From IMG/VR virus record IMGVR_UViG_3300012573_000004: a DNA stretch of 64,000 nucleotides; one strand, given 5' to 3'. The translations under genes were made by a program, and so were the position numbers. This DNA is from a virus (lineage: Duplodnaviria > Heunggongvirae > Uroviricota > Caudoviricetes). A model generated the notes under the pieces. It was not told the DNA's origin. It was given only the letters and a program-made list of their open reading frames with translations, and ran no database searches. Positions 17,821 to 63,876 of this stretch are shown here, piece by piece. Numbering within the stretch: the first letter of the stretch is position 1; each line of letters begins with the position of its first letter.

Positions 17821-18657
17821 TTACCAGCTAGACAGTAGAGAAGAGCCAGAGCTTAGACCAGGAACTGCAGGTTTAGGTGGTGTAGAAGGAATGCCCGGAA
17901 GAGGAGAAGGGGAAGGAGCTGGTGCAGGTGAAGGCTGTGGGATGTTATCTTGTCCAACAACCTCTACACCCCATTGTGCAAAATCTTCAGATACTTCATC
18001 ACCAAAGTTGATATTATCATTGCCGATATATCCACCAGAAAGAGAAGCAATGATATGTGCCTTGCCATTGTCATCTACAGAATAAATAGGAGAACCCGAA
18101 TCACCACCAATAGCAAAAACACTAGCTTCTACACTTCCACGTTGGTAATCAATCTTAGTGACTTTGCCACATGTCTTTTGAGTGCTCCTGCCATATTTGC
18201 ATACATTATCCCACTTCTGTACATCACTGAGGGATTTTGAATTGTCAATAGGAATACCCCCTTCAATAACACCAGAAGTTGTTACTCCAGGTGATAGCTT
18301 GAAAATAGCCAAGTCATTAAATGTCTTTCCATTAGGGTTGTGGTGAAAAGAGTTATCACCATAGTAGTTATTCATAAAAGAATCATCAGAGATAGGAACA
18401 TTGCGAGAAGAAATCTTCTTCACTGGAGATCCATCATCACGCTTCCTCACGCAATGTCCTGCTGTTGCACCGTAAAGATCACCTTTTTTATCTTTTACTA
18501 CTGCAGTAAGAGTGCATAGTGACACCTTGTGGTTAGAAAAATGAATTTCAATTTGATTTCCAGGATTTACTGTAGCAGGTTCAGCATATGCTACAACAGG
18601 GGAAAAGAGAGCAACAGATGCTGCAGAAACAACTGCAGCAAACTTGGCTTTAAACAT
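17821..18657 (-). CDS. Secreted trypsin-like (S1/chymotrypsin fold) serine protease
   Basis: Signal peptide MFKAKFAAVVSAASVALFSPVVAYA. His motif TAGHC. Ser motif GGDSGSP. Pro-rich C-terminus. Confidence 0.8.
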   Translation of the reverse strand: MFKAKFAAVVSAASVALFSPVVAYAEPATVNPGNQIEIHFSNHKVSLCTLTAVVKDKKGDLYGATAGHCVRKRDDGSPVKKISSRNVPISDDSFMNNYYGDNSFHHNPNGKTFNDLAIFKLSPGVTTSGVIEGGIPIDNSKSLSDVQKWDNVCKYGRSTQKTCGKVTKIDYQRGSVEASVFAIGGDSGSPIYSVDDNGKAHIIASLSGGYIGNDNINFGDEVSEDFAQWGVEVVGQDNIPQPSPAPAPSPSPLPGIPSTPPKPAVPGLSSGSSLLSSW

Positions 18658-18881
18658 AGATAAGTGCCTTTCTAGATAGTTTTTGATAGTTCATAGTAGA
18701 ATAGATATTCTTTACAAGAGAGAATAATACTATGCTGCATTTTATCTGTCAAGAAAATAGGAAAGAAATATACATTGTCAATGTGTAAGTTTTTGTGTCC
18801 CTTTTTAAGATTCTATAAAAAACCCCTTTGATCTCTTGTAAAAAATCAAAGGGGAGGATGAAAAGTGGCTTTTGATATCAC

Positions 18882-19082
18882 TTAGAATGTAACACGATCA
18901 AGGATCTCTACATCAGCCTTAGACTCAATAACACCTTCCTCAATAAGCTCACGCTCTAGTGCAGAGATTGCACGCTTGAGGTTGGAGCCATAAATAGCAC
19001 GCTTATGAACGTCCTTGTTAAGGTCAAACTTTCCTTTATCATCTTTGTCCTTTTTGAAAACATAAGCAAAAACGTAGTTCAT
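18882..19082 (-). CDS. Small hypothetical protein
   Basis: Start at MNYVFAYVF with the SD aaaggacaaactatATG. Confidence 0.4.
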   Translation of the reverse strand: MNYVFAYVFKKDKDDKGKFDLNKDVHKRAIYGSNLKRAISALERELIEEGVIESKADVEILDRVTF

Positions 19083-19223
19083 ATAGTTTGTCCTTTGTCT
19101 AGGGTACAGTTTCTTTCTATGTGTTATGTGAAACACATTGCAAGCATTTTATCACCAAAAGGGAACATTTTGCAGAAAACAAAAAAGAAACACCGCTAAT
19201 AGTTTAATCAACGGTGTTTTTGG

Positions 19224-19296
19224 AGCCTTCTATCGGGATCGAACCGATGACCTACGCATTACAAGTGCGTTGCTCTACCATCTGAGCTAAGAAGGC
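19224..19296 (-). tRNA. tRNA-Thr (anticodon TGT)
   Basis: Reverse complement GCCTTCTTAGCTCAGATGGTAGAGCAACGCACTTGTAATGCGTAGGTCATCGGTTCGATCCCGATAGAAGGCT. Anticodon loop CTTGTAA. Confidence 0.85.
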
Positions 19297-19500: not shown

Positions 19501-19983
19501 ATGGAGTTTTTTACTACCCCCTCTTGGTCAACATTGAGTGGAATATTTGTTCTATCACTCATTCTTTTTGGAGCTTTCATTGCCATTATCTACGATCAGC
19601 AAGGTGAAGAAAATCATAGAAATGTAAGAATCATCACTGTTATCTATGCAGCCTTGCAAATTGCACTCAAAGTATTCCTCGTCATTGGAATATTCAAAAT
19701 AACAGGTGGAACAGCACAAGCAGGATGGGGGCTTTTCATTGGATATATCCTTGTTCTCGTTGTTGACATCCCCACTATTGCCCTAGCATCTATTAAACGT
19801 CTTTCTCGTGGCTATGAAATATTACAAGATAGCCTGCTTGAAGATGAAGGTGAGTCAGAGGATGAAAACAAAGATGAAGACAAGGATGAAGATGAGGATG
19901 AGTCAGAGGGTGATATTAGAAAGGATGAAGATAAAGATGAAGATGAGGATGACATTGACAAGGATGATGATTCAACCAAATAG
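19501..19983 (+). CDS. Membrane protein (three or four TM helices) with an acidic E/D/K-rich C-terminal tail
   Basis: ORF with hydrophobic segments followed by EDEGESEDENKDEDKDEDEDESEG. Confidence 0.55.
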   Translation: MEFFTTPSWSTLSGIFVLSLILFGAFIAIIYDQQGEENHRNVRIITVIYAALQIALKVFLVIGIFKITGGTAQAGWGLFIGYILVLVVDIPTIALASIKRLSRGYEILQDSLLEDEGESEDENKDEDKDEDEDESEGDIRKDEDKDEDEDDIDKDDDSTK

Positions 19984-20049
19984 ATCTTATCATTCCCACT
20001 TTCACAGCAGGGAATGACTTATACCTTCATCCACATTATGCAGTTAAAT

Positions 20050-30277: not shown

Positions 30278-31159
30278 TTAAACACGAGAGAATTCAGCAA
30301 TGTAGTTATCATTGCTAGACTGCATACAAGTAATAAAGACAAGACGATTAGGCTTCTTCTCATTCCAAATATCTTTGTCTCGTGCAATCAGACCTTTACC
30401 AGCACGGTGAGACTTCTCAAACTTAAACTTAATTCCGCCAACCTCAATAATATCACCAGGGTTAAGCTTAGATTCTCTGCTTACAGGATCATAAAGCCAG
30501 TTTCCTGGTGCTAGTCCTGATAGTGCTCTACCATCAGGAGTGGTGTCGAGCGCATGAGCCGCCAGGTAGGACGTACCTTGTGAGGTCTTATCATACTTCA
30601 CACCACGGTTTTTAATCCAGAACACAGAAGTAAAATTTGTTGGCTCAATGGTTCCGTTTTTTGGCTCCACCAAGGATCCCAATGCAAAATCAGCATTCAA
30701 GGAAGGGATCTTTACTCTTTTACCAGTATTGGAAATCTGTTTCATTTCCTTAGCACTAGGCTTCCTATCAGTCTGCGCTGGGGTGCTTCCCCTGCGATGA
30801 GTATTCTTGTCCCTTTTATTCTTGTTCTTATTATCATTGTGAGGAGATGAGCTGCTATCTCCTCGTCCTGGAAGATCTGAGTGATTAACTGGGTTTCCTA
30901 GAAGATCCACATTCTGGTTAGGATCGTCATCTTTATCTTGTCTTCCTACAGGTGCATCTTTTACTGCTGTTAGCTGTGAAGAATCTTCAGGCACTGTCAC
31001 AGCATTAAATTGGGCACCTGCATTATTAGATACCTCTTGACCCTTATCTGACTTCATAAACATTGTTACTGATCCAACAATAACCAAAATAGCCACCATG
31101 GCTACAGCAATGATGATTGCCAGAGTCTTTTTCTCTTTTGCTCCAATTTTTGATGACAT
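30278..31159 (-). CDS. Membrane-anchored sortase-family transpeptidase (class E/F-like)
   Basis: N-terminal TM LAIIIAVAMVAILVIVGSV. Catalytic His in TSYLAAHAL. Cys in LVFITCMQS. Arg in NYIAEFSRV near the C-terminus. Confidence 0.6.
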   Translation of the reverse strand: MSSKIGAKEKKTLAIIIAVAMVAILVIVGSVTMFMKSDKGQEVSNNAGAQFNAVTVPEDSSQLTAVKDAPVGRQDKDDDPNQNVDLLGNPVNHSDLPGRGDSSSSPHNDNKNKNKRDKNTHRRGSTPAQTDRKPSAKEMKQISNTGKRVKIPSLNADFALGSLVEPKNGTIEPTNFTSVFWIKNRGVKYDKTSQGTSYLAAHALDTTPDGRALSGLAPGNWLYDPVSRESKLNPGDIIEVGGIKFKFEKSHRAGKGLIARDKDIWNEKKPNRLVFITCMQSSNDNYIAEFSRV

Positions 31160-34362: not shown

Positions 34363-34410
34363 AAAAACACCCTCTTGAAGAAAAATATTTCTTCAAGAGG
34401 GTGTTTCTTA
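34361..34410. terminator. Bidirectional terminator (acaccctcttgaag/cttcaagagggtgt, A-run plus T-run) between convergent genes
   Basis: Read in the sequence. Confidence 0.8.
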
Positions 34411-34419: not shown

Positions 34420-35922
34420 TTAAAAGAATATCTTTTTCACTTTGTCTAGGAAAGATACATTAACCTTTCCACCTGTATTAACTTTAGGTCCTACATTAGT
34501 AGAAATGTCTTCTTTCTTCACAGGTTCAGGTTTATTTATGTCCCTTGATACTTTTTCCTTATGAAAAGTATCATTGTCTTCTTCATCTTCTGTATCATTT
34601 ACTGATGCTGAGAGATCATCTCGTGAAATTTCTCCTTCAGCTGGTTGTGGGGGTTGTATGGTATAGCCATCATCACTATCCTTGCTGGTAGAGGTTGTGG
34701 GTTGGTCAGAATCTGTGTGGCTATCCTCTGTAGATGAAGGAAATGTAGTCTGGCTGGGAGTGGCACTATCTGCATGAGAAGACACTACAGAAGGGGATTC
34801 TTTCTTTGCATTATCATCATCTCCCTGTGGTGGAACTACTGATGGTGATGAGTCAGGAGAAGGATTATTATCTCCTGAGGAAGGCTTATCTTTGTCACCT
34901 GAGGAGGGCTTATCTTTATCTCCTGGAGAAGGCTTGTTATCTCCTGGTGAAGGTTTATCTTTGTCACCTGAGGAAGGCTTATCTTTGTCTCCTGGAGAAG
35001 GCTTGTTATCTCCTGGGGATGGTTTATTATCATCAGAGGATGGTTTATCTTTGTCATCAGGGGAGGGCTTGTTGTCATTTGTATCTTTGTCACCAATGGT
35101 ATTGACAAATACCTCTTTCCCTACTGTCTTTTCAATCCACTCTTTATACTCAGAAACAGGCATGTACATAGTCTTCTTATTTCCTACTGGATCCACACCT
35201 TTTGGAGTTGCTCCAAAGGAAAGAACACCATAGAGTGTATCATTGATAACAAATGGTCCTCCAGAATCCCCTACTGTAGAAATTCCTTTTTTGAAAATAA
35301 CAGGATTAACGTTCATTCCTGGATTAAACTCATCATCTTTTTCTGTCTTATAAGACATTGTTCCATCCAGAGTGTTAAGTTTTTCCAATTTATCCTTTTT
35401 ACCTGGTCCCCAGCCATATCCTTTTCCTTCAGTGTTTTTATTGATGACACCTTCTTGCAGCTTCATAGGGGTAATATTGCTTGCAGGTTTATCAAGGTGA
35501 AATAACGCCATGTCCCTATCTGAAGAGTAGGTCTTTACATTGTCTACTTTATAAACAGGCTGTGATTTGGCACTAGTTCCAAAAGAAATATCTGAATACC
35601 ACTTATCTATTCCACCTTTAGGAATACAATGCTGTGCTGTTAACACCCACTGTGGTGCAACCAAAGTTCCAGAACAAGTCAGAGTATGAATTTTAGGTTT
35701 TTTATCATCTATATCTTCCTTATTTTTCATAAAAATTCGTGCTACTGCACTAGTGGTATCATTATCTGGTGCATCTGTAGAAGAAACCATTGCTGATGCT
35801 GGTGCTATAGAAGCTGTTAGTGCAATAGCAGCTACAGTAGAAGCTGTGTATATTGTGTGTTGTGAAGGCATAAAGAGTAGTCCTTTTTCTAGATGTTGTG
35901 CATTTCTATGCAAATTTTTCAC
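34420..35922 (-). CDS. Secreted trypsin-like serine protease with a (D/N)KPSPGDKDKPSSGD repeat linker and a C-terminal TGG tag (GPKVNTGGKVNVSFLDKVKKIFF)
   Basis: Signal peptide. His motif TAQHC. Ser motif GDSGGPFV. Tandem-repeat linker. Conserved C-terminal tag. Confidence 0.8.
   Translation of the reverse strand: MKNLHRNAQHLEKGLLFMPSQHTIYTASTVAAIALTASIAPASAMVSSTDAPDNDTTSAVARIFMKNKEDIDDKKPKIHTLTCSGTLVAPQWVLTAQHCIPKGGIDKWYSDISFGTSAKSQPVYKVDNVKTYSSDRDMALFHLDKPASNITPMKLQEGVINKNTEGKGYGWGPGKKDKLEKLNTLDGTMSYKTEKDDEFNPGMNVNPVIFKKGISTVGDSGGPFVINDTLYGVLSFGATPKGVDPVGNKKTMYMPVSEYKEWIEKTVGKEVFVNTIGDKDTNDNKPSPDDKDKPSSDDNKPSPGDNKPSPGDKDKPSSGDKDKPSPGDNKPSPGDKDKPSSGDKDKPSSGDNNPSPDSSPSVVPPQGDDDNAKKESPSVVSSHADSATPSQTTFPSSTEDSHTDSDQPTTSTSKDSDDGYTIQPPQPAEGEISRDDLSASVNDTEDEEDNDTFHKEKVSRDINKPEPVKKEDISTNVGPKVNTGGKVNVSFLDKVKKIFF
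34842..35097. repeat. In-frame tandem repeat (about 21-24 bp units) encoding KPSPGD(N/K)DKPSSGD
   Basis: Repeated DNA. Antisense frames give the spurious ORFs 34806..35105, 34836..35108 and 34892..35233. Confidence 0.7.
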
Positions 35923-36033: not shown

Positions 36034-37314
36034 TTAAAAGAGTTGTTTTACCTTTGCAAAAAATGATTTACCTTGTACCTTTCCACCAGTCTTTACTGTT
36101 GGTCCTACAGCTTCCTCTTCTGCAGAATCATTGACACTATTTCTGTCTTCTGTGCTGTCTACTGTAGAACCACCTTCAGTGGTATTTCCTGCAGTAGCAC
36201 TTCCTGTAGTGGTACTTCCTGCAGCAGTGTTTCCTGCGGCAGTGTTCCCTGTGGTAGTAACCCCTGGAACAGTTCCATTGCCAACAACAACAGCTTCATC
36301 AGTATCTTCAGGAGGGTTAATCACTGTTGCATCAGTTACCTTGGAGTCATCTACTTGTGTCCCTTTATTTGTGGAAGACTTATGAGAAGTTGATGGTTTT
36401 GCTGTTTGTGATGTAGAAGGTTGGGAAGACTCATCCTCACTAGGAGTGTCTCCATTGGAGGTGTCTTCCTTAGTGGGAACTTCTGCATCAACAGTTCCAC
36501 CATCTTCTTGTGGTTGTGCATTACCAGAATCTTCCCCTGATGCAGTTACAAAACTATCATTTTGTTCAATGGTTTTTTCAATCCATTCTTTGTATTGAGC
36601 TACAGGCATATATAGTCCATGAGATATTTCTCCCTTGTCAGGAATAGTTGCCATAGACAAAACGCCATATACTGTGTCATCTATAATAAATGGAGATCCA
36701 GAGTCACCCTTTGCAGAATGGCCACCATCAAAGATTACCTCATTAGTGTCCATGTCTTTAAATGGTCCACCATGAACAGCTTCTGGAAGCATTGTTCCAT
36801 TGAGGGTATTGAGAGCTTTGAGTCGTGGTTCATCTATAGGCTTTCCCCATCCATAAGCTTGTCCCTGCTTTTCTTCTTGTATAACACTATCCCAAAGCTT
36901 CAACGGGGTGATATTTCTTACTGGTTTATCTAAATGGAATAGAGCCATATCATCTTGATCAGAGTGCATTTTAACATCATCTATTTTGTACTCTTGTCCA
37001 TCATCAGTGGTCCCAAAAGTAGCAACCCCAGAATACTTATCTAGTCCTTCTTTAACACAGTGTGCAGCAGAAAGAATCCATTGTGGAGCAATCAAAGTTC
37101 CTGTACAAGATGTAACATGCACAATCCCACTACCATTGGCTTGTACTGCATCTATTTCAGCTTTATCACTTAGCTGGATGTGTGTTATAGCATTAGTAGT
37201 ATCATTAGCTTCTGCATTAGTATCACTGACTAGAGCTTGTGCAGGAATGGCCATAGTTGTCAATGCTAATGCTGCTGTTGCAGAAGCTGTAGCCATTTTT
37301 GTTTTATAACCCAT
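36034..37314 (-). CDS. Secreted trypsin-like serine protease with a Thr/Ala/Gly-rich linker and a C-terminal TGG tag (GPTVKTGGKVQGKSFFAKVKQLF)
   Basis: Signal peptide. His motif SAAHC. Ser motif GDSGSPFI. Tag. Confidence 0.8.
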   Translation of the reverse strand: MGYKTKMATASATAALALTTMAIPAQALVSDTNAEANDTTNAITHIQLSDKAEIDAVQANGSGIVHVTSCTGTLIAPQWILSAAHCVKEGLDKYSGVATFGTTDDGQEYKIDDVKMHSDQDDMALFHLDKPVRNITPLKLWDSVIQEEKQGQAYGWGKPIDEPRLKALNTLNGTMLPEAVHGGPFKDMDTNEVIFDGGHSAKGDSGSPFIIDDTVYGVLSMATIPDKGEISHGLYMPVAQYKEWIEKTIEQNDSFVTASGEDSGNAQPQEDGGTVDAEVPTKEDTSNGDTPSEDESSQPSTSQTAKPSTSHKSSTNKGTQVDDSKVTDATVINPPEDTDEAVVVGNGTVPGVTTTGNTAAGNTAAGSTTTGSATAGNTTEGGSTVDSTEDRNSVNDSAEEEAVGPTVKTGGKVQGKSFFAKVKQLF

Positions 37315-37399: not shown

Positions 37400-38800
37400 T
37401 TACTGTGTTGCATTGTCATAACTGGATGCATGAGCGTTGTGGGTATCTACATCATGGTCATGAGTAACATCTTTTCTCACAGTGCTTTTGTTTCCATAAG
37501 CACTATCTCGTGCAACTTTTTTATGAGAAGAGTTTTTGATTGTCTTGAGACGTTTGTGCAAGCTATCAAATCTCTTACCACTTTTCTTTTCTATTTTGGA
37601 GATTACCTTTTCAGCCAAGGATGCATCAGTTCCTGCCTGAGCATGTGATTGTGCTCCACCTTGTGCTGTTGCATGTGCTGTGTTTTTACCACCAATAGAT
37701 GAAGCATGTGCTGAAGATCGTGATTTGTGTCCCTTATGTGCATGATGAGATGGTTTCTTATTTCCCTTCTTTGCATGATGAGAAGGTTTTTTCCCTGCTG
37801 CTTTAGACTTATGGTGTCCAGATGCAGGCTGAGGAGAAGATACTAGTTTCTCACCTGTAGTCTCGTTAATCCATTTGCCATAAGGAGAAACAAGAGCATA
37901 AAGCACAGTATCAGTAGACTTTTGCCCATCATCACCATGAACAACACCCTGAGACAAAATTCCATAAACTTTTCCATTAATAATAAATGGAGATCCAGAA
38001 TCACCATAGGTAGACTGTCCAGAGTTTAATGTAGCACGCTGAGTTTTCATACCTGGTACAGCACTGTCAGTTTCTACCTTGGGTTGAATCTGTGCAATAT
38101 CAGCAGTGAGATTTTCTGCTTCTGCAGGCACGCCTTGATCATCTACATCACCCCATCCATACACAGAACCAGGGGTAGGAGATTTGACTATGCGGGAAGA
38201 AATCTTTAATGGTTGTGCAGCAGAAGGAGTACTAAGATGAAGAAGGGAAAGATCTACCTTGTCATTGTTGACAACACTATCTACCTCAATTTTATCTGTA
38301 GATTCTGGTGTTTCTCCCAAAGTTACTTCAGAAAATGCTTCTTGTTTATCTACACAGTGTTTTGCTGTAAGAATCCACTCAGGAGCAATGAGAACACCTG
38401 TACAAATAGTAGAACCATATCCTTGACCTGAAGAAATATCATCAGAGTCAGAGGAATCATCAGAAGAATCATCAGTAGAATCTTCCTTATTGTCCTCATC
38501 TTTTACTTCATCAGAATCTTCTTTGTTATCATCATTGTTGCTTGAATCTTCTGAAGATTTTTCATCTGAAGATGTTTCATCTTCTTCATTGGCATAGTTT
38601 TCTGTTTCTTTATCCCCAGTACCAGATTCCTTATTGCTATCTTCTGGGAATGTTGTTTCAACTCTAGCAATAGCACCAACATTTTCTTGATTTTTAGGCT
38701 GAGAGCCATCAACAATAGCAAAAGCAGGTGAAGCAACAACACTTGTTGTTACCACACCTGCACATAGTGCTGCTACATATCTAGACATGTGCTTAGTCAT
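37400..38800 (-). CDS. Secreted trypsin-like serine protease with an acidic N-terminal low-complexity region and a basic His/Lys-rich C-terminal region
   Basis: Signal peptide. His motif TAKHC. Ser motif GDSGSPFI. No TGG tag. Confidence 0.8.
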   Translation of the reverse strand: MTKHMSRYVAALCAGVVTTSVVASPAFAIVDGSQPKNQENVGAIARVETTFPEDSNKESGTGDKETENYANEEDETSSDEKSSEDSSNNDDNKEDSDEVKDEDNKEDSTDDSSDDSSDSDDISSGQGYGSTICTGVLIAPEWILTAKHCVDKQEAFSEVTLGETPESTDKIEVDSVVNNDKVDLSLLHLSTPSAAQPLKISSRIVKSPTPGSVYGWGDVDDQGVPAEAENLTADIAQIQPKVETDSAVPGMKTQRATLNSGQSTYGDSGSPFIINGKVYGILSQGVVHGDDGQKSTDTVLYALVSPYGKWINETTGEKLVSSPQPASGHHKSKAAGKKPSHHAKKGNKKPSHHAHKGHKSRSSAHASSIGGKNTAHATAQGGAQSHAQAGTDASLAEKVISKIEKKSGKRFDSLHKRLKTIKNSSHKKVARDSAYGNKSTVRKDVTHDHDVDTHNAHASSYDNATQ

Positions 38801-39382: not shown

Positions 39383-42073
39383 ATGAAGAAAAACACTATT
39401 TTAGCTTGTACTGCTTTGTCACTTATTCTCCCCTGTGTCCCTGCTCATGCTGCTAATGATATTTACAATATATCACCAGCTTCCACCCCACAGCAGATCA
39501 AAGATTCTACCTCTTCCCAGGTAATGACTATTCATGATAGAGAACGATCTTCAGATCTCACCACCATTTGGATAGCACCAAGGAAAGATTGCAATGATAA
39601 AGCTGATGGTAGCAAAGACAACCCAGTATGTGATGTGTCACAGGCTAGCTCTATTCTTAACAATCTTTACCAACAGGGAAAAGCACGTGGTGATGTAGAC
39701 ATCAGATTCAAAACAGGAAAAGGTGTTGTCTATCAACCTGAAAATGGAAAAAGGTTTGGTGATTTTACCTTCGCTCCTACAGCAGGACATGTAGTGAGAT
39801 TTATTCCTGATTGGTACAACAACATTGATGACTTGAAGAAAATCAATGCTGATAATAGAATCAATGTTAAAGGATATCCAGCTTCACAATCTAAAAATAA
39901 TGACTCTGGGGTAGGTTTATCTATTTCTCCTAAATCTAATAAGGGAGGAACATATCAAATCAGTGGATTCCATTTTGACAACCTGGTAAACCCATTGAAA
40001 GTCATCACTCCTCAAGTAACCAAAGACAAAATATCCAATAGCTCTGATCCAGAAGATATCTATAAAAACATTAGACATTCCCAGAATGCACCTATAGGGA
40101 ACATGCTTATTTCCAATAACGTTTTTGATCATGTAGGTGATGCATACACAGCTGGTGGTGGAAACTACATCTCAGGTGCAATGAGGGTGTGGGGTGCTAC
40201 CAACATGCTTATCAAAGACAACACTTTTATCAATGGAAAAGCAACTTCTAAAAACACTTCTACTTCCCATGTTATCTACAACTATATGACATCAGGAACA
40301 GTCTATGAAGGAAATACCTTCAAAAATAATAACTACTCTTTGATTAGAGCACGCTTGAGCAATGATGATATTATTACAGGAAATAACTTTTCTACATCTA
40401 AGAGTCTTTTTGGAAAAGACAAGGAAGTGATTGGAACATGGTATCAAGGATACCTCTATGGTAAAGGAGGAACAAGAGACAACAAATCTTATGCAGAATG
40501 TAAAGGTGATGGACCTTTTGAGTTCAACAACACCTTTACAGGAAGATACTCCACTGTCTTAAGAAACCTTAAACAGCAACCTTATTGCACAGATAAAAAA
40601 CGCATCACAGCACCCATGTTTCTAGAAGGAATACAAACTGGAGATAAAGAATATTCCCTTCGTTGGGGGGATGCTGATACTAATGGTGATGGAGTGAAAA
40701 ACTACCATGTCTATGTAGGAAAAGCTAATAAGTATGGAACTCCTACTTCTGATGTACCTGTCAAAGTAAAAACCACTCCTTCTTCTGTGCATGAAGCCAC
40801 AATTGATAAATCTATGTTTGACAAAGCTGGTATCAAGCCAGGTGATAACTTCCACTATTATGTGGTAGCAGAATCTACATCTGGATGGTTGTCTTCTAGA
40901 AACCAACTGAAAACATCAGCATTCCTTGATAAAACCTATCAAGGAAGAGACAACTATACTGTAGCTAGAGTGGAATCATGGGATAGAATCACTGATGGTA
41001 AAAAGCCAGAGAAATCCACTTTTAACTATGATCTTGTTTCACACAAGGTATCACCTAGCTATAAGAGTGCAAAAGTAAAACCAGGAGACAAAGCAACACA
41101 GTATGTGTCCCTTTCCAAGGTTCCTGCTTATACTACATTCTCATTGAAGGATTCCACATTTCCTAAAAAGGTATCTATAGATCCACGCACAGGAAAAATC
41201 ACTGCTGACACTGCAAAAGTAAAACCTGGAAAATATACAATAGATGTTGATGTGCAATATGGTGATTGGTCTCATGACACTGCAACATTCAACCTTGAAG
41301 TAGAAGAAGAAACAGTTGACAAGCCTTCTACTGATAAGCCAACCACCAGTACCAGCAAGAAGCCAACCACCAGTACTAGTAAAAAGCCAACCACCAGTAC
41401 TAGTGAAAAACCAACTTCTACTGACAAGCCAACCACCAGTACTAGTGAAAAACCAACCACCAGTACTAGTGAAAAACCAACTTCTACTGACAAGCCAACC
41501 ACCAGTACTAGTAAAAAGCCAACCACCAGTACTAGTAAAAAGCCAACCACCAGTACTAGTAAAAAGCCAACCACCAGTACTAGTGAAAAACCAACTTCTA
41601 CTGACAAGCCAACCACCAGTACTAGTGAAAAACCAACTTCTACTGACAAGCCAACCACCAGCACATCTAGTGACATTTCCAAGCCATCTAGCTCCAATGA
41701 TGTAACAACTAGCAAGAAGCCAACAACTTCTTCCAACAAGAAGACTGCTTCTAGCACTGTAGTTTCTCCTACAGCACAACCTTCTCCAGTAGATAAGGGA
41801 AGCTCTCATCACCCATCACTATGGGAGAAAATAAAGTCTGTCTTTTCTCCACATAAAGAAGATCAATCTTCTTCTAATAACCAAGTAAAAACCCCTTATC
41901 ATGCAGTCAATGCAGAAAATAGTGAAAGCAACGCAAGAGACAGTCATGACTACCACCCTGGTGATGCAAGCAATGATGCAGATACAGGAGAAGGGAAAGT
42001 AGGTCCAGAGGTAAACACTGGTGGAAAGGTGGATAGATCCTTCCTAGATAAGGTTGTATCCATTGTGAAATAG
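39383..42073 (+). CDS. Large secreted right-handed beta-helix (pectin-lyase-fold-like) surface protein with TSTS(K/E)KP tandem repeats and a C-terminal TGG tag (GPEVNTGGKVDRSFLDKVVSIVK)
   Basis: Signal peptide ILACTALSLILPCVPAHA. Parallel beta-helix repeats (NNVFDHVGD...GNTFKNNNYSLIRARLSNDDIITGNNFS). Thr/Ser/Pro repeats. Tag. Confidence 0.7.
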   Translation: MKKNTILACTALSLILPCVPAHAANDIYNISPASTPQQIKDSTSSQVMTIHDRERSSDLTTIWIAPRKDCNDKADGSKDNPVCDVSQASSILNNLYQQGKARGDVDIRFKTGKGVVYQPENGKRFGDFTFAPTAGHVVRFIPDWYNNIDDLKKINADNRINVKGYPASQSKNNDSGVGLSISPKSNKGGTYQISGFHFDNLVNPLKVITPQVTKDKISNSSDPEDIYKNIRHSQNAPIGNMLISNNVFDHVGDAYTAGGGNYISGAMRVWGATNMLIKDNTFINGKATSKNTSTSHVIYNYMTSGTVYEGNTFKNNNYSLIRARLSNDDIITGNNFSTSKSLFGKDKEVIGTWYQGYLYGKGGTRDNKSYAECKGDGPFEFNNTFTGRYSTVLRNLKQQPYCTDKKRITAPMFLEGIQTGDKEYSLRWGDADTNGDGVKNYHVYVGKANKYGTPTSDVPVKVKTTPSSVHEATIDKSMFDKAGIKPGDNFHYYVVAESTSGWLSSRNQLKTSAFLDKTYQGRDNYTVARVESWDRITDGKKPEKSTFNYDLVSHKVSPSYKSAKVKPGDKATQYVSLSKVPAYTTFSLKDSTFPKKVSIDPRTGKITADTAKVKPGKYTIDVDVQYGDWSHDTATFNLEVEEETVDKPSTDKPTTSTSKKPTTSTSKKPTTSTSEKPTSTDKPTTSTSEKPTTSTSEKPTSTDKPTTSTSKKPTTSTSKKPTTSTSKKPTTSTSEKPTSTDKPTTSTSEKPTSTDKPTTSTSSDISKPSSSNDVTTSKKPTTSSNKKTASSTVVSPTAQPSPVDKGSSHHPSLWEKIKSVFSPHKEDQSSSNNQVKTPYHAVNAENSESNARDSHDYHPGDASNDADTGEGKVGPEVNTGGKVDRSFLDKVVSIVK
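41316..41660. repeat. In-frame tandem repeat (27/33-bp units) encoding KPTTSTS(K/E)KPTSTD
   Basis: Repeated DNA. Explains the spurious antisense ORFs 41141..41812, 41272..41757 and 41316..41705. Confidence 0.75.
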
Positions 42074-52920: not shown

Positions 52921-52923
52921 CTG

Positions 52924-58013: not shown

Positions 58014-58023
58014 ATATATTCAA

Positions 58024-59256: not shown

Positions 59257-60132
59257 CTACATCATCAGCATCTTATGCGCTATCTCCCTCATAGCTTTTT
59301 CCACAAAGAATACCTGTGTAGAGTAAGGATGTGGGATGAAGGAAAGAGAAGAAAAGTAAGTTTTTGCCAATGTATAGCTATCTGCAGAAAATCCCCTCCA
59401 TTGAGGACCAGTAGCACGAGTACTAACAAGGAGATTTTCTGCTCTAGAGATTATGAAACTTTTGTACTTATTATCACTATTGTACTTTTTCTCATTATCA
59501 ATAGTGGTATAAAAATTGGAATAGTTATTACCAAAAAATCCAATGTATACTCCTAAAAGTCCTTTTCCAGGAATCCATACAGGTCCACCAGAATCTCCAA
59601 GTTTCCCATAAGCTCCAGAGTCTCCTATAATGACATTGCCTGCTACTATTTTGATATTTCCACAGTTAATCTTTTTCTGCACTCTGCTATATACACATAC
59701 TTTTTCACTGCTTTTAACATCAGAAATATCTACTTTTCTATCACCAGAATAGATATTTTCTCCCAAAGAAACATAGTTATTAAGTTTTACAACATTAAAA
59801 TCATTTCCCATAGATTGAGATAAAAGAGTTTTGCTACTTCTGTCAGTGCGAGATTCTATAGTTCCAATGATGTGATCATCATTGTCATATACCACTGATT
59901 TCTTCCCCTTAAAAGAACAGTGATCTGCAGTATAAGCAAGCTTTTCTTTGTGATTTATGTATCCAATAGTGCAAGTTTTCTTTTTATCAATAGAGATTTT
60001 ATCACCTTGCACAATGGTGGGAAGATCCTCAATAGGTGTGGTGTAAATAGGTTGTGCAGAAGCGTGAGCAGGAAAAATAATGATAAAGCAGAAAGCATAT
60101 AATAATGCTATCTGCTTTGTTAAAATATGCAT
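59257..60132 (-). CDS. Secreted trypsin-like serine protease
   Basis: Signal peptide IALLYAFCFIIIFPAHASA. His motif TADHC. Ser motif GDSGGPVW. Confidence 0.75.
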   Translation of the reverse strand: MHILTKQIALLYAFCFIIIFPAHASAQPIYTTPIEDLPTIVQGDKISIDKKKTCTIGYINHKEKLAYTADHCSFKGKKSVVYDNDDHIIGTIESRTDRSSKTLLSQSMGNDFNVVKLNNYVSLGENIYSGDRKVDISDVKSSEKVCVYSRVQKKINCGNIKIVAGNVIIGDSGAYGKLGDSGGPVWIPGKGLLGVYIGFFGNNYSNFYTTIDNEKKYNSDNKYKSFIISRAENLLVSTRATGPQWRGFSADSYTLAKTYFSSLSFIPHPYSTQVFFVEKAMREIAHKMLMM

Positions 60133-60887: not shown

Positions 60888-62714
60888 CTAGGAGAAGATT
60901 CCCTTAACCTTGTCCCAGAAGCTTAGTGTAATGTTTCCTCCAGTATTAACCTCTGGACCAGCTTTAGAATCATTAAGAGGTTGTGTGTCACCGCTTACCT
61001 TCTTTGGTTGATAAGGAGTGGATGGAGAGTTAGGAGTAAAGGAATCATTGCTGTTGCTGTTGTCTCTTATTGGGGAAACAGGAGTGGTTGTAGCAGCAAA
61101 GGAAGGAGTGTTCTCTTCTACTGGAGTTCCTTCATCATTATCACCATTGTGAGCGTTGTCATCTACAGGAGTACTTGGAGTCTTAGAAGTGCTTGGTGTA
61201 GATGGAGTCTTAGAAGTGCTTGGTGTAGCCGTGTCCCTTCTTGGTGTTGTAGAAGTACTTGGAGACTCTGACTTGCCTGGCTTATCTGGAGTACCTGGAG
61301 TATCGGGCTTATCTGGGGTATCAGGAGTATCTGGGGTGTCAGGAGTATCTGGCTTCTCAGGCTCATTAGCTATAGCACCCATACCAAAACTTGCACCAGT
61401 TCTGTCATGGATAATGAACTTCCTAGGAGTACTATCAACCTTATAACCCTTTGGAGCCTTGTCTTCTACCAACTCATATCTTCCCTCAGGAAGAGCAACA
61501 TTGATAAGACCATCTTCTTTGTAGAGATCTTCTAGAGCGTTCTTATCATTATCACCAGGTTTCTTGTTATCTGTAACAGTGAACTCTTCTTTAGTACCAA
61601 GATTCTTAATCTTCCAAGAAGATCCAGAAAGAAGCTTATTATCTTTATCAGTCTTTCTTAGGGTTAGACCATTGTCAGAAGGGTAGAGATAGTTGTCATC
61701 AAAACTCCACGTGCTTTTAGCTCCAGAACCTGTATCTGCTCTTGCAATACGAGACACAGAAGCAGGCTTTATTGTCACCATAGGGTTACAGGAAGCAAAT
61801 ACAGTAGGTTTATGCCAAACTTCCTTCTCCCCTGTTTCTGGGTCTTCTCTGTAATCCCTGCTAGGTTCTAAAAACCTTCCATCTCCTCCTCTGATTCTGG
61901 ATGAAGCTGCTGTTCTATCATAATAAGAAGTGTTAATGGAGAAAACATCATCATGTTTCATGAAGAAATCAAATCTTTCACTTAAAGAAAGACCCTTTTC
62001 TGGAACAAGTTCTGATTTGAGTTCTCTTCTTTTCTTGAATCCGTCTCCATAAGGAGCATAATTCTCAGTATTCATGCCAGCAAAATCTATCCCTCCCATG
62101 GTATGCCCATAACCATTGTATATCTTAGCATTATAAAGATGCCCACTCTCAGGATCTTTCTTCCACTCTACCATCTCTTTAGGAAGGTAGTTTTCTGGTT
62201 TGAACAACCTATAGAAGTATTTTTCTTCAATATTAGGATCTCTATCTTCTTTTTCTACATCAGTAGCAATGAAGTACTTATCCTTACCCTTAACCTTCAT
62301 CAATTTTGGCTTTTTATCATCAGGATATTTTTCCACCAAATAACTATAATCCCCTGGAGCATCCCAACTTGACTCTTCTAGATTATTAAGCTCTTCTTCA
62401 GTAGGGTGCTCATATCCTGGGGCTTCTGGATAACCATCATCAACAATATAGGTATTAATATCACCTACCTCTTTGAGCTTATCTTGAAAATCCTTATCCA
62501 TAATATCTTCACAGTATAACCATTCACCCCACTTCCAACTGTCTTCTGTTTCAGTATCAGATGGGTAGATGTTATCTACATCTCTTTCTTCAGCAGTTGG
62601 GTAAAGTTTTTCTACAGGATCTTCCACTGCAGAAGCTATACCACTTCCACCTATTCCTGCAGCTAGTGCTAGTGAGAGAGCAAAAACACTAGTGGTATTC
62701 TTTTTTAGAGACAT
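60888..62714 (-). CDS. Secreted 608-aa protein with a (PDT)n/PGTPDKP repeat linker and a C-terminal TGG tag (GPEVNTGGNITLSFWDKVKGIFS)
   Basis: Signal peptide VFALSLALAAGIGGSGIASA. PEKPDTPDTPDTPDTPDKPDTPGTPDKPGK repeat. Tag. Confidence 0.65.
   Translation of the reverse strand: MSLKKNTTSVFALSLALAAGIGGSGIASAVEDPVEKLYPTAEERDVDNIYPSDTETEDSWKWGEWLYCEDIMDKDFQDKLKEVGDINTYIVDDGYPEAPGYEHPTEEELNNLEESSWDAPGDYSYLVEKYPDDKKPKLMKVKGKDKYFIATDVEKEDRDPNIEEKYFYRLFKPENYLPKEMVEWKKDPESGHLYNAKIYNGYGHTMGGIDFAGMNTENYAPYGDGFKKRRELKSELVPEKGLSLSERFDFFMKHDDVFSINTSYYDRTAASSRIRGGDGRFLEPSRDYREDPETGEKEVWHKPTVFASCNPMVTIKPASVSRIARADTGSGAKSTWSFDDNYLYPSDNGLTLRKTDKDNKLLSGSSWKIKNLGTKEEFTVTDNKKPGDNDKNALEDLYKEDGLINVALPEGRYELVEDKAPKGYKVDSTPRKFIIHDRTGASFGMGAIANEPEKPDTPDTPDTPDTPDKPDTPGTPDKPGKSESPSTSTTPRRDTATPSTSKTPSTPSTSKTPSTPVDDNAHNGDNDEGTPVEENTPSFAATTTPVSPIRDNSNSNDSFTPNSPSTPYQPKKVSGDTQPLNDSKAGPEVNTGGNITLSFWDKVKGIFS
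61270..61370. repeat. In-frame short tandem repeat encoding PDTPDTPDTPD...
   Basis: Repeated DNA. Explains the spurious antisense ORFs 61156..61446 and 61163..61366. Confidence 0.65.
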
Positions 62715-62916
62715 TTCTTTTCTTTCCCTTCAGAAAAATAAACAAATTGGTATTCAATGTACATATTAAAATATACATTCTATTTTCAGAATACATCATT
62801 TGTGAAAAATATGTACATCTCCCTTTTTTCACAAGACAAATACGATACAGTTCACAAAATAAAAAATCATCACCTCCTCCAGTACAGAGAAGAGGTGATG
62901 ATTTACAAACTGTTAT

Positions 62917-63876
62917 TTAGACATTCAAATGTGGAGTTTTTCCAGAAAGAATAGACATGATGAAAGGTGTCAGAATCACTGCTACTCCAGCAATAGCAGC
63001 AAACCCTAGAAGCCATTCAGATCCACTAGAGCTTCCAGAAAACCCACCTGTTTTAGGAGGAGTAGGTGCAGAAGGTTTATGGGTAGCTGGAGTAGGTGTC
63101 ATCTCAGTATCATTGTCCTGATCACCAATGTCAGGGTTTTTCAACGGGGTTTTCTCTAACACATAAGGAGAGTGTTCAGCATATTGACCAGCAGGACACA
63201 TCTTAGACTCATCTACTGTTCCATCTTCATTAATAGAACCATCACCTTCAGCACAATTCTTGTCATCAATAGAGGTGAAGAAATGTTTACCTCCAATGAT
63301 CAAGGTGTATACACCTACAAACCCTTTTCCTGGAATCCAAGCAGGTCCTCCAGAATCTCCACCAATGCCATTGACATGTTCATCTCCTACTACCAAAGTT
63401 CCATCTACACTTTTAACTTTTCCACAATGAACACTGTTGAACTTCCTACTAAACATACATAGCTTTTCACCAGAAGTGATATCTGCAGTGCTTACCCTGT
63501 TATCTCCAGAATAAGAGTTTTCTCCTGTTTCAACATCATCATAAAGATTGATATAAGCTACATCATTACGAGATTTAGGAATACCCATTTTCCTATCAGA
63601 AAAACGTCCATATGCTTCACCAATCTTTTCCCTGTTACTGTTGTAGATAACACTTTTTTGATGCGCTGGAAGACAATGATCAGCAATATAAGCTTTATGT
63701 GTGTTTTTATCTACATAACCAACAGTACAAGCAATAGCAGTTTCATTGATATATACCTTTTCACCTTGTGAGATAGTTGTCTGGGAAGAATCCTGCTGTG
63801 CATGAGCGATCTGTGGAGATGCCAAAGATGCAAAGAATACTGCACATGCAGTAGTCAAAGATAATACTTTTTTCAT
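62917..63876 (-). CDS. Secreted trypsin-like serine protease ending in an LPXTG-like anchor (PPKTGG, hydrophobic TM, Lys-containing tail)
   Basis: Signal peptide. His motif IADHC. Ser motif GDSGGPAW. C-terminus PTPPKTGGFSGSSSGSEWLLGFAAIAGVAVILTPFIMSILSGKTPHLNV. Confidence 0.8.
   Translation of the reverse strand: MKKVLSLTTACAVFFASLASPQIAHAQQDSSQTTISQGEKVYINETAIACTVGYVDKNTHKAYIADHCLPAHQKSVIYNSNREKIGEAYGRFSDRKMGIPKSRNDVAYINLYDDVETGENSYSGDNRVSTADITSGEKLCMFSRKFNSVHCGKVKSVDGTLVVGDEHVNGIGGDSGGPAWIPGKGFVGVYTLIIGGKHFFTSIDDKNCAEGDGSINEDGTVDESKMCPAGQYAEHSPYVLEKTPLKNPDIGDQDNDTEMTPTPATHKPSAPTPPKTGGFSGSSSGSEWLLGFAAIAGVAVILTPFIMSILSGKTPHLNV

Follow-up and report, generated by a model that had tools for sequence, protein, structure and literature searches.

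The Sec-exported S1 serine proteases of the window, that is, of the whole stretch of 64,000 nucleotides analysed here, were found to fall into two sets that are unrelated to each other, namely the tandem triplet D-C-B and the proteases A, E and F. In our best reading of the data as a whole, to which we give a rough probability of 0.55, both sets would be envelope-remodelling cargo of a jumbo phage, and a C-terminal module carried by B and C would serve in surface retention. The six protease genes are as follows:

17821..18657, minus strand: protease A, a small alpha-lytic/Rv1815-like S1 protease (NCBIfam Rv1815_serprot, 1.2e-16, below the family cut-off)
34420..35871, minus strand: protease B, S1A trypsin family (Pfam Trypsin, 2.9e-23)
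36034..37314, minus strand: protease C, S1A trypsin family (Pfam Trypsin, 1.5e-25)
37400..38800, minus strand: protease D, S1A trypsin family, first gene of the tandem triplet (Pfam Trypsin, 4.5e-24)
59257..60132, minus strand: protease E, alpha-lytic/Rv1815-like S1 protease (NCBIfam Rv1815_serprot, 5.5e-20)
62917..63876, minus strand: protease F, a paralog of E

All six open reading frames of the original prediction were confirmed, on the minus strand and with the positions given for them, except that the start of B was revised, as gene calls in other assemblies and the alignment make the ATG at 35871 more likely than the GTG at 35922. A signal peptide of the n-h-c type ending in A-x-A could be read straight from the sequence in every copy, and the serine motif G-D-S-G-(G/S)-P was found in all six, both as predicted. 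The histidine motif T-A-x-H-C was exact in four copies (A, TAGHC; B, TAQHC; D, TAKHC; E, TADHC), while C (SAAHC) and F (IADHC) deviate from it. Alignments showed an intact His/Asp/Ser triad in each copy (H85/D122/S205 in C numbering; H71/D111/S181 in E numbering) and retention of the catalytic residues in the orthologs. The triads and signal peptides support the view that these genes encode catalytically intact, exported S1 serine proteases, and six copies in 64 kb do represent an unusual concentration. Low-complexity modules had been ascribed to every copy; those of A, B, C and D were as described, but none was found in E, whose C-terminal region of ~80 residues is non-repetitive.

The proposal of a single local paralog family did not hold, since BLASTP, Pfam/NCBIfam and structure comparison resolved two S1 subfamilies at three loci. 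In BLASTP, B, C and D shared 35-36% identity with one another, E shared 37% with F, and A shared 24-27% with E or F. Between the groups, we obtained one marginal alignment (A-D, E 0.017) and otherwise short matches at the catalytic-Ser motif with E above 0.9. The Pfam Trypsin threshold was passed by B, C and D (83-91 bits), whereas A, E and F fell below it, matched the Rv1815 model weakly and have an alpha-lytic protease-like fold. The suggested affinity to S1B (V8/Spl) proteases was not the best match in the structure comparison, where the AlphaFold model of E (pLDDT ~90 across most of the core) placed alpha-lytic protease, Lysobacter L1/L5 and streptogrisin B (SGPB) in the top ranks, at target-normalised TM-scores of 0.62-0.67; the best viral match of the model was the S1 peptidase of Gordonia phage Yvonnetastic (TM-score 0.71). 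Unlike classical alpha-lytic proteases, A, E and F have no long pro-region. Protease A has a Pro-rich tail with the conserved end PGLSSGSSLLSSW, and its triad and C-terminus are kept in the orthologs. In its C-terminal part, F has a Pro/Thr-rich spacer and PPKTGG, then a Ser/Gly stretch and finally a hydrophobic segment, and F alone among the window ORFs combines a sortase-like motif with a following hydrophobic segment. The predicted "PKTGG anchor" covers two different things: it is present as such in F, and the module of B and C is another one, consisting of GPxV(N/K)TGG and a 15-residue amphipathic end. In the F-like gene of a 47% GC relative, the PPKTGG anchor is missing.

The triplet D-C-B is bounded by the following features:

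34364..34407, no strand assigned: hairpin resembling a bidirectional intrinsic terminator (stem of 19-20 bp), directly past the B stop codon
38902..39204, minus strand: conserved ORF of 98-100 aa without a signal peptide, immediately upstream of D in every relative (gene calls)

The intergenic gaps within the triplet are short (85 and 162 bp), and no minus-strand terminator comparable to the strong one after B was found between D, C and B, suggesting that the three genes probably form a single transcription unit. Protease D carries an acidic Asp/Ser/Glu insert (~38426-38650) within an N-terminal loop, and its C-terminal region (~37400-37840) is rich in His/Lys. It lacks the C-terminal module, as do its orthologs in the related contigs L087 and L089. 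In C, a T/A/G/S-rich linker (~36109-36564) leads into the module (36034-36108). In B, a linker of KPSPGDKDK-type repeats (~34495-35085; TRF repeat array at 34856-35027) precedes the module at the C-terminus (34420-34494), and alignment of B across four near-identical assemblies placed all differences within the linker. The best PDB sequence match of C was kallikrein-6/trypsin; the position of Asp189 is occupied by His in C. At the base of the S1 pocket, B has Ile and D has Gln, as read from the alignment, and the differences among the three copies suggest that each has its own specificity and that none is trypsin-like. The B/C/D-type proteins share a conserved junction A-x-A/(L/I/M)V, with A27 and V29 invariant in their alignment. 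Signal-peptidase cleavage between A-x-A and (L/I/M)-V would expose the activating N-terminus of S1A enzymes, and a propeptide would thus be unnecessary.

The copies had been taken as an expansion under diversifying selection. We found that the expansion is not recent: the triplet is old, being positionally orthologous in relatives as distant as 33-51% protein identity, including relatives with 37% and 49% GC. The tail module is always on the C- and B-type copies of these relatives and never on the D-type, and orthologs of C keep it at identities as low as 39%. Purifying selection acts on the catalytic domains, with dN/dS values of 0.10-0.14 that show no sign of diversifying selection on the enzymes; they are gene-averaged over two pairwise comparisons, so that positive selection at single sites would escape them. 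Neighbour genes gave similar values (0.04-0.25). In D, the catalytic part gave 0.12-0.13, and the insert plus C-terminal region 0.27-0.43. The C-terminal tail is likewise under purifying selection (0.00-0.16). Fast evolution is confined to the low-complexity linkers and proceeds mainly via indels; the linker values of 0.22-0.48, together with the many indels, fit relaxed constraint and not positive selection.

The module consists of 24 residues, [VA]GPxV[NK]TGG-x3-4-SF[FLW]xK[VI]xx[LI]F, and ends not only B and C but also two non-protease surface proteins of the window:

39383..42073, plus strand: adhesin-like surface protein of 896 aa with a signal peptide (Pfam RibLong, 8e-14); module at 41999-42073
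60888..62714, minus strand: surface protein of 608 aa with a signal peptide (Pfam SpaA, 4.4e-10); module at 60888-60962

The former has a Rib domain and a KPTTSTS-repeat stalk (repeat array 41325-41661); the latter, which lies between F and E, has a SpaA/prealbumin-fold domain and a Pro/Thr/Ser stalk. In the six-frame translation of the window, P.V.TGG occurs four times, in each case 15 residues before the stop of a long ORF. Run against 1.84 billion representatives, a 24-position profile detected 50 clusters at E<=1e-3, and in 48 of these the match ends at most 3 residues from the C-terminus. The passenger domains include Trypsin, SpaA, Cutinase, RibLong, VWA, DUF11, SdrD_B and CshA. No NCBIfam model matched the module, and a full-text literature search with four short peptide strings from it returned no paper describing it. 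The module is thus conserved and not described in the libraries or papers searched.

We consider that the module probably tethers proteins to the host cell surface. Proteases B and C would then be built as a catalytic head, a long disordered low-complexity stalk and the module, of which the last 11-12 residues (hydrophobic moment 0.39-0.65) may form a short amphipathic helix that lies in the membrane interface and holds the protein at the envelope. The invariant GPxVxTGG may be a recognition site for a partner. Its conservation is stricter than a simple amphipathic anchor needs. F may be anchored through its PPKTG-type motif and hydrophobic segment, and D, having no module, may be released or held electrostatically through its His/Lys-rich tail. 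The predicted surface protease arsenal appears apt for several of the copies, whose stalk and C-terminal anchor seem built for cell-surface retention.

A possible, though rather doubtful, alternative is that the module is a cleaved sorting signal, in which a sortase-like transpeptidase cuts V-(N/K)-T/G-G and attaches the stalk to the cell wall by a covalent bond, the helix serving only to keep the substrate at the membrane before processing. The enzyme could be a Pfam-recognised sortase, which in the related contig L098 lies 8 kb from a tail-bearing gene, or the following protein:

30278..31159, minus strand: conserved membrane-anchored protein of 293 aa, in which His202 and Cys278 are invariant and whose synteny with the triplet holds in all relatives

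The 293-aa protein is 66-85% identical in L087, L088 and L089 (dN/dS 0.14-0.16), a conservation above that of the proteases, and is a candidate processing enzyme. Cleavage would also agree with the invariant T-G-G and the fixed four-residue context before it, as in LPXTG or LAXTG, and with the passengers SpaA, Rib, SdrD_B, CshA and VWA, which are usual domains of sortase substrates. However, the module has neither the transmembrane segment nor the basic end of known sortase signals. The 293-aa protein matched nothing in Pfam, NCBIfam, PHROGs or PDB; in hhalign/BLASTP comparison with sortases only its LVxITC stretch aligned (14-29 residues, E 0.07-0.4), and its single-sequence structure model had a pLDDT of 41. 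Moreover, a protein with a canonical LPATG, TM and RRKK signal exists in the same genome type, and a sortase would therefore already have a classical substrate. We thus prefer the hypothesis of retention by the module itself.

The surroundings of the proteases had been described as accessory DNA, and epibiont or predatory lifestyles had been brought up. They are not such an island in a cellular genome; they look like a giant phage-like genome with rIIA/rIIB, HNH and tRNA genes. An adjacent rIIA/rIIB pair is a hallmark of phages, and the window contains the following:

5043-7610, plus strand: rIIA-like gene (phrog_612 RIIA, 9.3e-24)
7822-8688, plus strand: rIIB-like gene adjacent to it (phrog_609 RIIB, 1.9e-30)

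The rIIB-like gene has a precomputed Pfam Phage_T4_rIIB hit in other assemblies. We also found a homing HNH endonuclease (phrog_559, 1.8e-78), an O-antigen-acetylase-type cargo gene (phrog_6705, 4e-99), a phage-type helicase, phrog_421, Ltp and an NT5C/PNK-like gene, with PNKP, GmrSD and a methylase just beyond the window. The window also has six tRNAs, among them Ile-TAT, Arg-TCT, Arg-CCT and Thr-TGT, which match its heavy use of the AT-rich codons AGA/AGG/ATA/ACA. Contigs of the element in independent assemblies measure 359,681 to 380,901 bp, and three of them end, by calculation, at an equal distance from the window. The assembly labels (OHJU14-1 and LARS22-1 scaffolds) read as human-skin metagenomes. 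Taken together, these data suggest that the element is a phage-like genome of ~375-380 kb from human skin, probably that of an uncultured jumbo phage. An actinobacterium, for instance a Corynebacterium, is the probable host, as hinted by the nearest trypsin relatives among the matches listed (Corynebacterium), an acyltransferase matching the SucT model (1.3e-149), the Rv1815 model match and the structural match to the Gordonia phage peptidase.

It seems unlikely that the window is instead an accessory region with a prophage remnant from an uncultured skin bacterium of low GC, which would be allied to Corynebacterium/Mycobacteriales and have the proteases and adhesins as its own surface arsenal. 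Cell-like genes are indeed present (flotillin, the SucT-like acyltransferase, MscS, a SWEET-like transporter, isochorismatase and an LPATG-anchored 2753-aa sortase substrate), and sortase, RecA-like and ClpB-like genes occur in relatives. The parts inspected showed no capsid, terminase, portal or tail genes, the element was not found in IMG/VR or GenBank phage searches, and the shared contig ends could reflect bounding chromosomal repeats. However, ~100 kb inspected of this element type contained no recognisable ribosomal or other translation gene, including aminoacyl-tRNA synthetases, and none for RNA polymerase, transcription or central metabolism. Phage-type genes are spread across the whole window and not confined to one block, the rIIA/rIIB pair adjoins a tail-bearing protein in a 49% GC relative too, and tRNAs are dense, with 6 in 64 kb and anticodons typical of phage sets. 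Homologs of each of the six proteases are rare and come almost exclusively from metagenome assemblies, as is also the case for the ten tail-bearing clusters traced to their source; one member is in an NCBI assembly.

A giant plasmid or other non-viral extrachromosomal element with acquired phage genes, whose proteases serve as skin fitness or colonisation factors, is improbable. The lack of phage structural genes in the parts inspected and the presence of several IS607/IS605-type TnpB copies and a resolvase would fit it, as would a cargo of adhesins, sortase substrates and proteases, which is common on conjugative or virulence plasmids. However, no replication, partition or conjugation genes were recognised in those parts, and a virus is indicated by rIIA/rIIB, homing endonucleases, the tRNAs scattered over the window and PNKP/NT5C. 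The plasmid collection, searched with protease C, gave only distant Streptomyces-type proteases.

In the jumbo-phage reading, the proteases lie beside other envelope-modifying cargo (an Ltp-like lipoprotein and the AT3-SGNH acyltransferase), and may themselves be cargo that remodels the surface of the infected cell or digests surrounding proteins.

The six ORFs of the original prediction were all found by translation, on the minus strand, and the ATG at position 35871 is most likely the start of the second. The genes, named A to F here, are as follows:

17821-18657, minus strand, protease A
34420-35871, minus strand, protease B
36034-37314, minus strand, protease C
37400-38800, minus strand, protease D
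59257-60132, minus strand, protease E
62917-63876, minus strand, protease F

A typical signal peptide ending in A-x-A was found at the start of all six, and the serine motif G-D-S-G-(G/S)-P was present in 6/6, as had been claimed. The histidine motif, given as T-A-x-H-C for every copy, was exact in four of the six, whereas C carries SAAHC and F carries IADHC. The catalytic Asp was kept as well, alongside His and Ser. In an alignment of 12 sequences of the B, C and D group, H85, D122 and S205 (C numbering) were invariant; in the group of A, E and F (22 relatives), H71 and S181 (E numbering) were invariant and D111 was found in all but one, and along with the triad, two Cys pairs are kept across this group. 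The predicted catalytic residues of all six enzymes are thus shown to be intact. The low-complexity modules assigned to each copy were as described in the other copies, but E has none. The junction A-x-A|(L/I/M)-V, at the predicted end of the signal peptide, was invariant in B, C and D, and in A, E and F about 10-25 residues lie between the signal peptide and the first barrel strand.

The six copies had been taken for a single paralog family. An all-against-all BLASTP comparison gave two groups instead, with no significant similarity between them over the catalytic domain. B, C and D shared 35-36% identity (E 1e-27 to 1e-71), E and F shared 37% (E 2e-42), and A matched E and F at 24-27% (E 6e-5 to 3e-7); across the groups, BLASTP gave nothing beyond one marginal A-D match (E 0.017) and short matches at the catalytic Ser motif with E above 0.9. 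Similarly, the Pfam Trypsin model (PF00089; gathering threshold 20.6 bits) was passed by B (83.3 bits), C (90.8) and D (85.9), while E fell below it (16.1 bits) and A and F gave no match to this model. Among NCBIfam models, the nearest to A, E and F was the Rv1815 family serine proteinase (NF051463), at 60.7, 71.6 and 46.6 bits, respectively. Since this is an equivalog model with a curated cut-off of 175 bits, and the scores lie far under it, A, E and F are distant relatives of Rv1815 and not its equivalogs or orthologs. Taken together, the observation behind the original prediction was largely right and its interpretation partly right: the proteases add new members to two S1 subfamilies that were already known.

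A profile of B, C and D searched against solved structures gave its best matches to the chymotrypsin family (kallikrein-6 and trypsins), with E-values down to 2.5e-29. The three enzymes align with this S1A family across the whole catalytic domain and have equivalents of His57/Asp102/Ser195 and Asp194 as well as the His-loop cysteine, but they lack Asp189 and the Cys191-Cys220 pair. The residue of C aligned with D189 of kallikrein-6, six positions ahead of the catalytic Ser, is a His, and the family alignment reads Ile in B and Gln in D at the equivalent position. As Asp189 is absent, B, C and D are predicted not to be Arg/Lys-specific, and they probably differ in specificity from one another. 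They further differ from the S1A family in a mature N-terminus that would apparently be made by signal peptidase and not by zymogen cleavage, in long disordered C-terminal stalks, in an acidic loop insert in D, and in the C-terminal module of B and C.

Rv1815 of Mycobacterium tuberculosis is an active serine protease that is secreted and small in size (PMC13090312). A, E and F resemble it in being small and carrying a signal peptide, and they match the model over about 140-180 residues. Among these three, the structural comparison with the alpha-lytic fold covered E alone. An AlphaFold model of E, built on its 22 relatives, had a pLDDT of about 90 across most of the catalytic core, and its top 15 PDB matches were alpha-lytic protease and Lysobacter L1/L5, with target-normalised TM-scores of 0.61-0.66; the score against Streptomyces griseus protease B (SGPB) was 0.67. 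The model of E thus superposes best on enzymes of the alpha-lytic protease/streptogrisin type, which we take to be MEROPS S1E. The S1B affinity (V8- or SplA-like) suggested earlier was not borne out, as the staphylococcal Spl and V8 proteases matched the model at lower scores (0.45-0.51) than did alpha-lytic protease and SGPB. Among viral proteins, the highest-ranking match of E was to an S1 peptidase from Gordonia phage Yvonnetastic, at a TM-score of 0.71. In contrast to alpha-lytic protease, A, E and F are without a long N-terminal pro-region, and they differ from both the alpha-lytic and the Rv1815 types in their added C-terminal regions, namely a Pro-rich tail in A, a helical region in E, and PPKTG with a hydrophobic segment in F.

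Relatives of the proteases were found in metagenome assemblies only. The order D-C-B recurs in four related contigs, L089 (37% GC), L087 (49% GC), and L096 and L097 (both at intermediate distance), and each of the three genes was most like its positional counterpart in the other genomes, indicating that the triplication is older than the divergence of these genomes. The neighbours are also kept, with an upstream ORF of 98-100 aa and downstream ORFs of 234, 87, 152 and 289-301 aa together with a DUF4379 gene. The upstream ORF (38902-39204, minus strand), which lacks a signal peptide, directly precedes D in all relatives examined and could be a regulator or an inhibitor. The DUF4379 zinc-finger gene (28552-30114, minus strand) ranges from 408 to 576 aa and varies in copy number among the relatives, and it is split in the related contig L088. 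A terminator with a 20-bp stem was found after B and none between D, C and B, which suggests that D-C-B forms one transcription unit.

The proteases had been proposed to evolve under diversifying selection. This was not demonstrable: the catalytic domains gave dN/dS values of 0.10-0.14 in pairwise Nei-Gojobori estimates against L096 and L097, similar to those of genes nearby (0.04-0.25). Values of 0.22-0.48, with 10-81 gapped codons, were obtained for the linkers and for D's acidic insert and basic tail, and in near-identical strains the differences in B were confined to its repeat linker. The enzymes are under purifying selection, and the spacers change by relaxed, indel-driven evolution.

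We found that B and C close with VGP(K/T)V(N/K)TGG and 15 further residues in the pattern x4-SF(L/F)xKVKx(I/L)F. The same C-terminal module, 24 residues in length, closes two other proteins encoded in the window:

39383-42073, Rib-domain protein of 896 aa, not a protease
60888-62714, SpaA-domain protein of 608 aa, not a protease

In a six-frame scan of the window, 4/4 occurrences of P.V.TGG lay 15 residues ahead of the stop codon of a long ORF. Relatives of C with as little as 39% identity kept the module while the linker preceding it was wholly different, and the dN/dS of the module was 0.00-0.16. D never has it, whereas C and B always do, in the three genomes compared. An exhaustive search of 1.84 billion representative proteins with a 24-position profile of the module returned 50 clusters at E<=1e-3, and in 48 of these the match ended no more than 3 residues from the C-terminus. 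The carriers have signal peptides, and their passenger domains are diverse: among 44 carriers scanned, Trypsin was found in eight, SpaA in four, and Cutinase, RibLong and VWA in two each, and DUF11, SdrD_B and CshA repeats also occur. These comparisons show that the tail is a conserved, C-terminus-specific module common to B, C and putative adhesin-type proteins. Its carriers are rare; the ten clusters traced to their source came from metagenome assemblies only, save one member in an NCBI assembly. A search of a 5.8-billion-protein index with the tail alone, in which shared 5-residue words were required, gave 36 candidates and one match. No NCBIfam model matched the four tails or the C-terminus of F in scans at E up to 10, GlyGly-CTERM and PEP-CTERM included, and a full-text literature search with four short peptide strings from the motif returned no paper describing the module.

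The sole member of this clade found in an NCBI assembly is the contig L101 (GCA_003555765.1, QWCJ01000277.1, GC 46.8%). Its region 7644-12037 encodes two tandem proteins that carry a variant of the tail, GPAVHTGGEVESxS[FL]W, and after them come five paralogous genes, all of which start with MxKKQGVHAGPNGPRFVFGRENLDYQ.

The arrangement of signal peptide, functional domain, disordered stalk and conserved C-terminal element is the architecture of a surface-retention signal. Like the known C-terminal sorting signals (LPXTG/sortase, GlyGly-CTERM/rhombosortase and PEP-CTERM/exosortase), the module stands at the extreme C-terminus of Sec-exported proteins, has a short T-G-G motif after a low-complexity stalk, and rides on many unrelated passengers, trypsin-like proteases among them; the GlyGly-CTERM/rhombosortase signal is known on the Vibrio trypsin-like protease VesB. 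Sortase-like cleavage of the module at T|G is a serious rival to the explanation that we favour. The module differs from the known sorting signals in having neither a transmembrane helix nor a basic cluster after the motif, but a stretch of about 12 residues that is amphipathic, and it differs from LPXTG in that its motif is xV(N/K)TGG and the ends of B and C are not of the LPXTG type. No transmembrane segment was found in the tail sequences analysed. The last 11-12 residues had a hydrophobic moment of 0.39-0.65 and a mean hydrophobicity near zero, which is the predicted signature of a surface-seeking amphipathic helix. The Escherichia coli enzymes PBP5 and PBP6 are exported and held at the membrane by C-terminal amphipathic helices; the module resembles these anchors in that an exported enzyme ends in a short, predicted amphipathic helix and has no segment spanning the membrane, but differs in the strictly conserved GPxVxTGG before the helix and in its many passenger types. 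We favour the hypothesis that the module may be a non-covalent amphipathic anchor whose GPxVxTGG part would be recognised by a partner.

One candidate for an enzyme acting on the module is encoded in the window, four genes downstream of B:

30278-31159, minus strand, 293-aa putative membrane-anchored protein with an N-terminal membrane helix

In this protein His202, in '..LAAHALD..', and Cys278, in '..RLVFITC..', were invariant, and there was no conserved Arg. It is 66-85% identical among relatives, above the proteases, and its synteny with the triplet is never broken. On inspection by eye, it resembles a class F sortase. Searches of Pfam (including PF04203), NCBIfam, PHROGs and PDB, with the single sequence or a 4-sequence profile, returned no match, and comparison by hhalign and BLASTP with Staphylococcus aureus SrtA and with a sortase of the related contig L098 aligned only the LVxITC stretch. 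A single-sequence AlphaFold model was unusable (pLDDT 41), and a tblastn match to a Kitasatospora locus was spurious. The L098 enzyme is a Pfam-recognised sortase (19677-20546, plus strand, of ERZ1029982 NODE_1; 212,779 bp, GC 36.7%) located 8 kb from a tail-bearing gene. Near that tail-bearing protein (P0052), L098 also encodes a RecA-like ATPase, a 1252-aa ClpB-like AAA+ protein, and NlpC/P60, CAP-domain and TQ-domain proteins. In L001, a contig of the same genome type as the window (1-2924, plus strand), a 2753-aa LRR/Ig/SpaA-domain protein ends in a canonical LPATG + TM + RRKKA sortase signal, indicating that classical and new C-terminal signals coexist.

The remaining protease ends are of other kinds. 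F ends in PPKTGG, a hydrophobic segment and a weakly basic end, and this putative anchor was absent from a more distant relative. The A-type proteases have their own conserved C-terminal end, PGLSSGSSLLSSW / KPAVPGLSSGSSLLSSW (window 17821-17900), and F has a similar GGFSGSSSGSEW stretch just ahead of its hydrophobic segment (62917-63080). These Ser/Gly-rich ends of A and F may represent another C-terminal signal, and a link to O-acylation is pure speculation. Published O-mycoloylation sites are Ser/Gly-rich and have no consensus (PMC11066868); O-mycoloylation of the A and F ends was set aside, as its sites lack a consensus and a mycolate-containing host is presupposed.

The surroundings of the proteases are not those of an ordinary bacterial chromosome. 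The features of the window that bear on this are listed here:

5043-7610, plus strand, rIIA-like gene (PHROGs 9.3e-24)
7822-8688, plus strand, rIIB-like gene adjacent to the rIIA-like gene (PHROGs 1.9e-30; precomputed Pfam Phage_T4_rIIB in other assemblies)
28552-30114, minus strand, homing HNH endonuclease/DUF4379 zinc-finger protein (phrog_559, 1.8e-78)
22356-24593, minus strand, 745-aa AT3 + SGNH acyltransferase (4.4e-99 to a family of phage O-antigen acetylases)
759-2835, 26642-28048, 49880-51346 and 54827-56623, minus strand, IS607-like pair (resolvase and 471-aa ORF) and three TnpB (OrfB_IS605/Cas12f-like)
412-484, 536-610, 2919-2992, 19221-19296, 52923-52997 and 58355-58427, six scattered tRNAs

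The rIIA/rIIB pair gave the first indication that the window is part of a giant phage-like genome, and in a relative with 49% GC the Phage_T4_rIIB gene adjoins a tail-bearing protein. The window also encodes a phage-type helicase, phrog_421, an Ltp-type lipoprotein and an NT5C/PNK-like gene, and PNKP, GmrSD, methylase and MscS genes lie just beyond it. The AT3-SGNH gene additionally matched the model of the mycobacterial arabinogalactan succinyltransferase SucT (1.3e-149, below cut-off) and is a candidate for cell-wall-modifying cargo. Related contigs such as L097 and L089 have the IS607/TnpB elements at different insertion sites, so the elements appear to move within genomes of this type. The tRNA set (Ile-TAT, Arg-CCT, Arg-TCT, Thr-TGT, Asp-GTC and Asn-GTT) matches the heavy use of AGA/AGG/ATA/ACA codons, AGA and AGG making up 64% of the Arg codons in the genes of the window. 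tRNA Ile-TAT is rare in bacteria and seen in phages, and the tRNA-Thr was 92.5% identical over 52 nt to that of phiKZ-like Pseudomonas phages. Beside the tRNA-Thr lies a small ORF (19501-19983, plus strand) with an acidic Asp/Glu/Lys tandem repeat (TRF arrays 19839-19971) and a weak PHROG methyltransferase match (1.9e-4).

Independent assemblies gave contigs of 359,681, 374,128 (ERZ27283402 k119_89616), 378,967 (ERZ27289771 k141_5510), 379,056 and 380,901 bp; three of them end, by calculation, 225-229 kb left of window position 1. The scaffold labels OHJU14-1 (SAMN03025589/90) and LARS22-1 we read as belonging to human-skin metagenome studies. No translation, transcription or central-metabolism annotation was recognisable across the roughly 100 kb inspected from genomes of this type. 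On the basis of the rIIA/rIIB pair, the homing endonuclease, the tRNAs, the lack of housekeeping annotation and the contigs of 359,681-380,901 bp, we take the window to belong to an uncultured jumbo phage, or at any rate to a giant phage-like element. A source in the skin genus 'Candidatus Pellibacterium' (QFRN01), considered earlier, was set aside in view of this phage-like context. Against the phage reading, no virion or packaging genes (major capsid, portal, terminase) were recognised in the same 100 kb, and the gene content is unusually cell-like. IMG/VR searches returned no relative of the element, and GenBank phages gave the tRNA-Thr match only, and the rIIA, E and C proteins had no match there. 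PHROGs held no convincing family match for any of the six proteases, and the topoisomerase and RecA-like proteins of related contigs matched phages and bacteria alike. A plasmid search with protease C returned distant Streptomyces proteases only.

The element resembles known jumbo phages in its contigs of 359-381 kb, its rIIA/rIIB pair and homing endonucleases, its dispersed tRNAs and its cargo of the Ltp and O-acetylase types. Its GC is low, as it is in phiKZ-type phages that infect high-GC hosts. It differs from known jumbo phages in that virion genes were not recognised in the 100 kb inspected, in the lack of a sequence match among GenBank or IMG/VR phages, and in its unusual load of Sec-exported proteases, of proteins with adhesin domains and of sortase substrates. 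When relatives of the triplet were sought with one genome per species, the matches listed were distant trypsins at 25-40% identity, with Corynebacterium first among them. The Corynebacterium trypsins, the Rv1815- and SucT-type matches, the cutinase passengers and the Gordonia phage peptidase hint indirectly at an actinobacterium as the possible host. Uncultured jumbo phages that encode chimallin and PhuZ have been predicted to infect Corynebacterium (PMC12625630), and, as far as cited in one preprint (bioRxiv 10.1101/2025.05.01.651599), novel skin jumbo phages occur in the Skin Microbial Genome Collection.

We propose the following scheme for the enzymes. The proteases would be exported by Sec, and in B, C and D the signal-peptidase cut at A-x-A|(L/I/M)-V would yield the activating N-terminus. 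The tail would hold B and C at the envelope on their long stalks, D would be released or bound via its basic tail, and F would be held by a sortase-type or membrane anchor. More speculatively, the proteases, the Ltp and the acyltransferase might jointly remodel the host cell surface during infection, where the trimming of receptors could, for instance, exclude other phages; alternatively, the proteases might digest the surrounding matrix or skin proteins. The full reading is a tentative one, to which we give a probability of roughly one in four: an uncultured clade of giant phages infecting skin actinobacteria would give the infected cell a new surface made of the phages' own proteases, esterases and adhesins, and the tail (GPxV[NK]TGG with an amphipathic helix), specific to the clade, would be read by a phage-encoded enzyme, sortase-like or otherwise new, such as the 293-aa protein.

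The module has the hallmarks of a sorting signal but is without the transmembrane segment of the sortase, rhombosortase and exosortase signals, and it is unmatched by the curated NCBIfam models. Together with its phage-like carrier, it is worth following up, beyond the proteases themselves. The proteases appear to be carried by a phage-like human-skin genome of about 380 kb along with adhesins, sortase substrates and cell-wall-modifying enzymes. If carriage by a phage is true, a skin commensal would receive secreted proteases as well as surface proteins from a virus, and phage exclusion, host adhesion and possibly host-skin interactions could be affected. If the tentative reading of the tail is also true, the tail and a phage-encoded sortase-like or new processing enzyme would constitute a virus-encoded protein-sorting system. 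Identifying the reader of the module could reveal a new way to hold proteins on the actinobacterial envelope.
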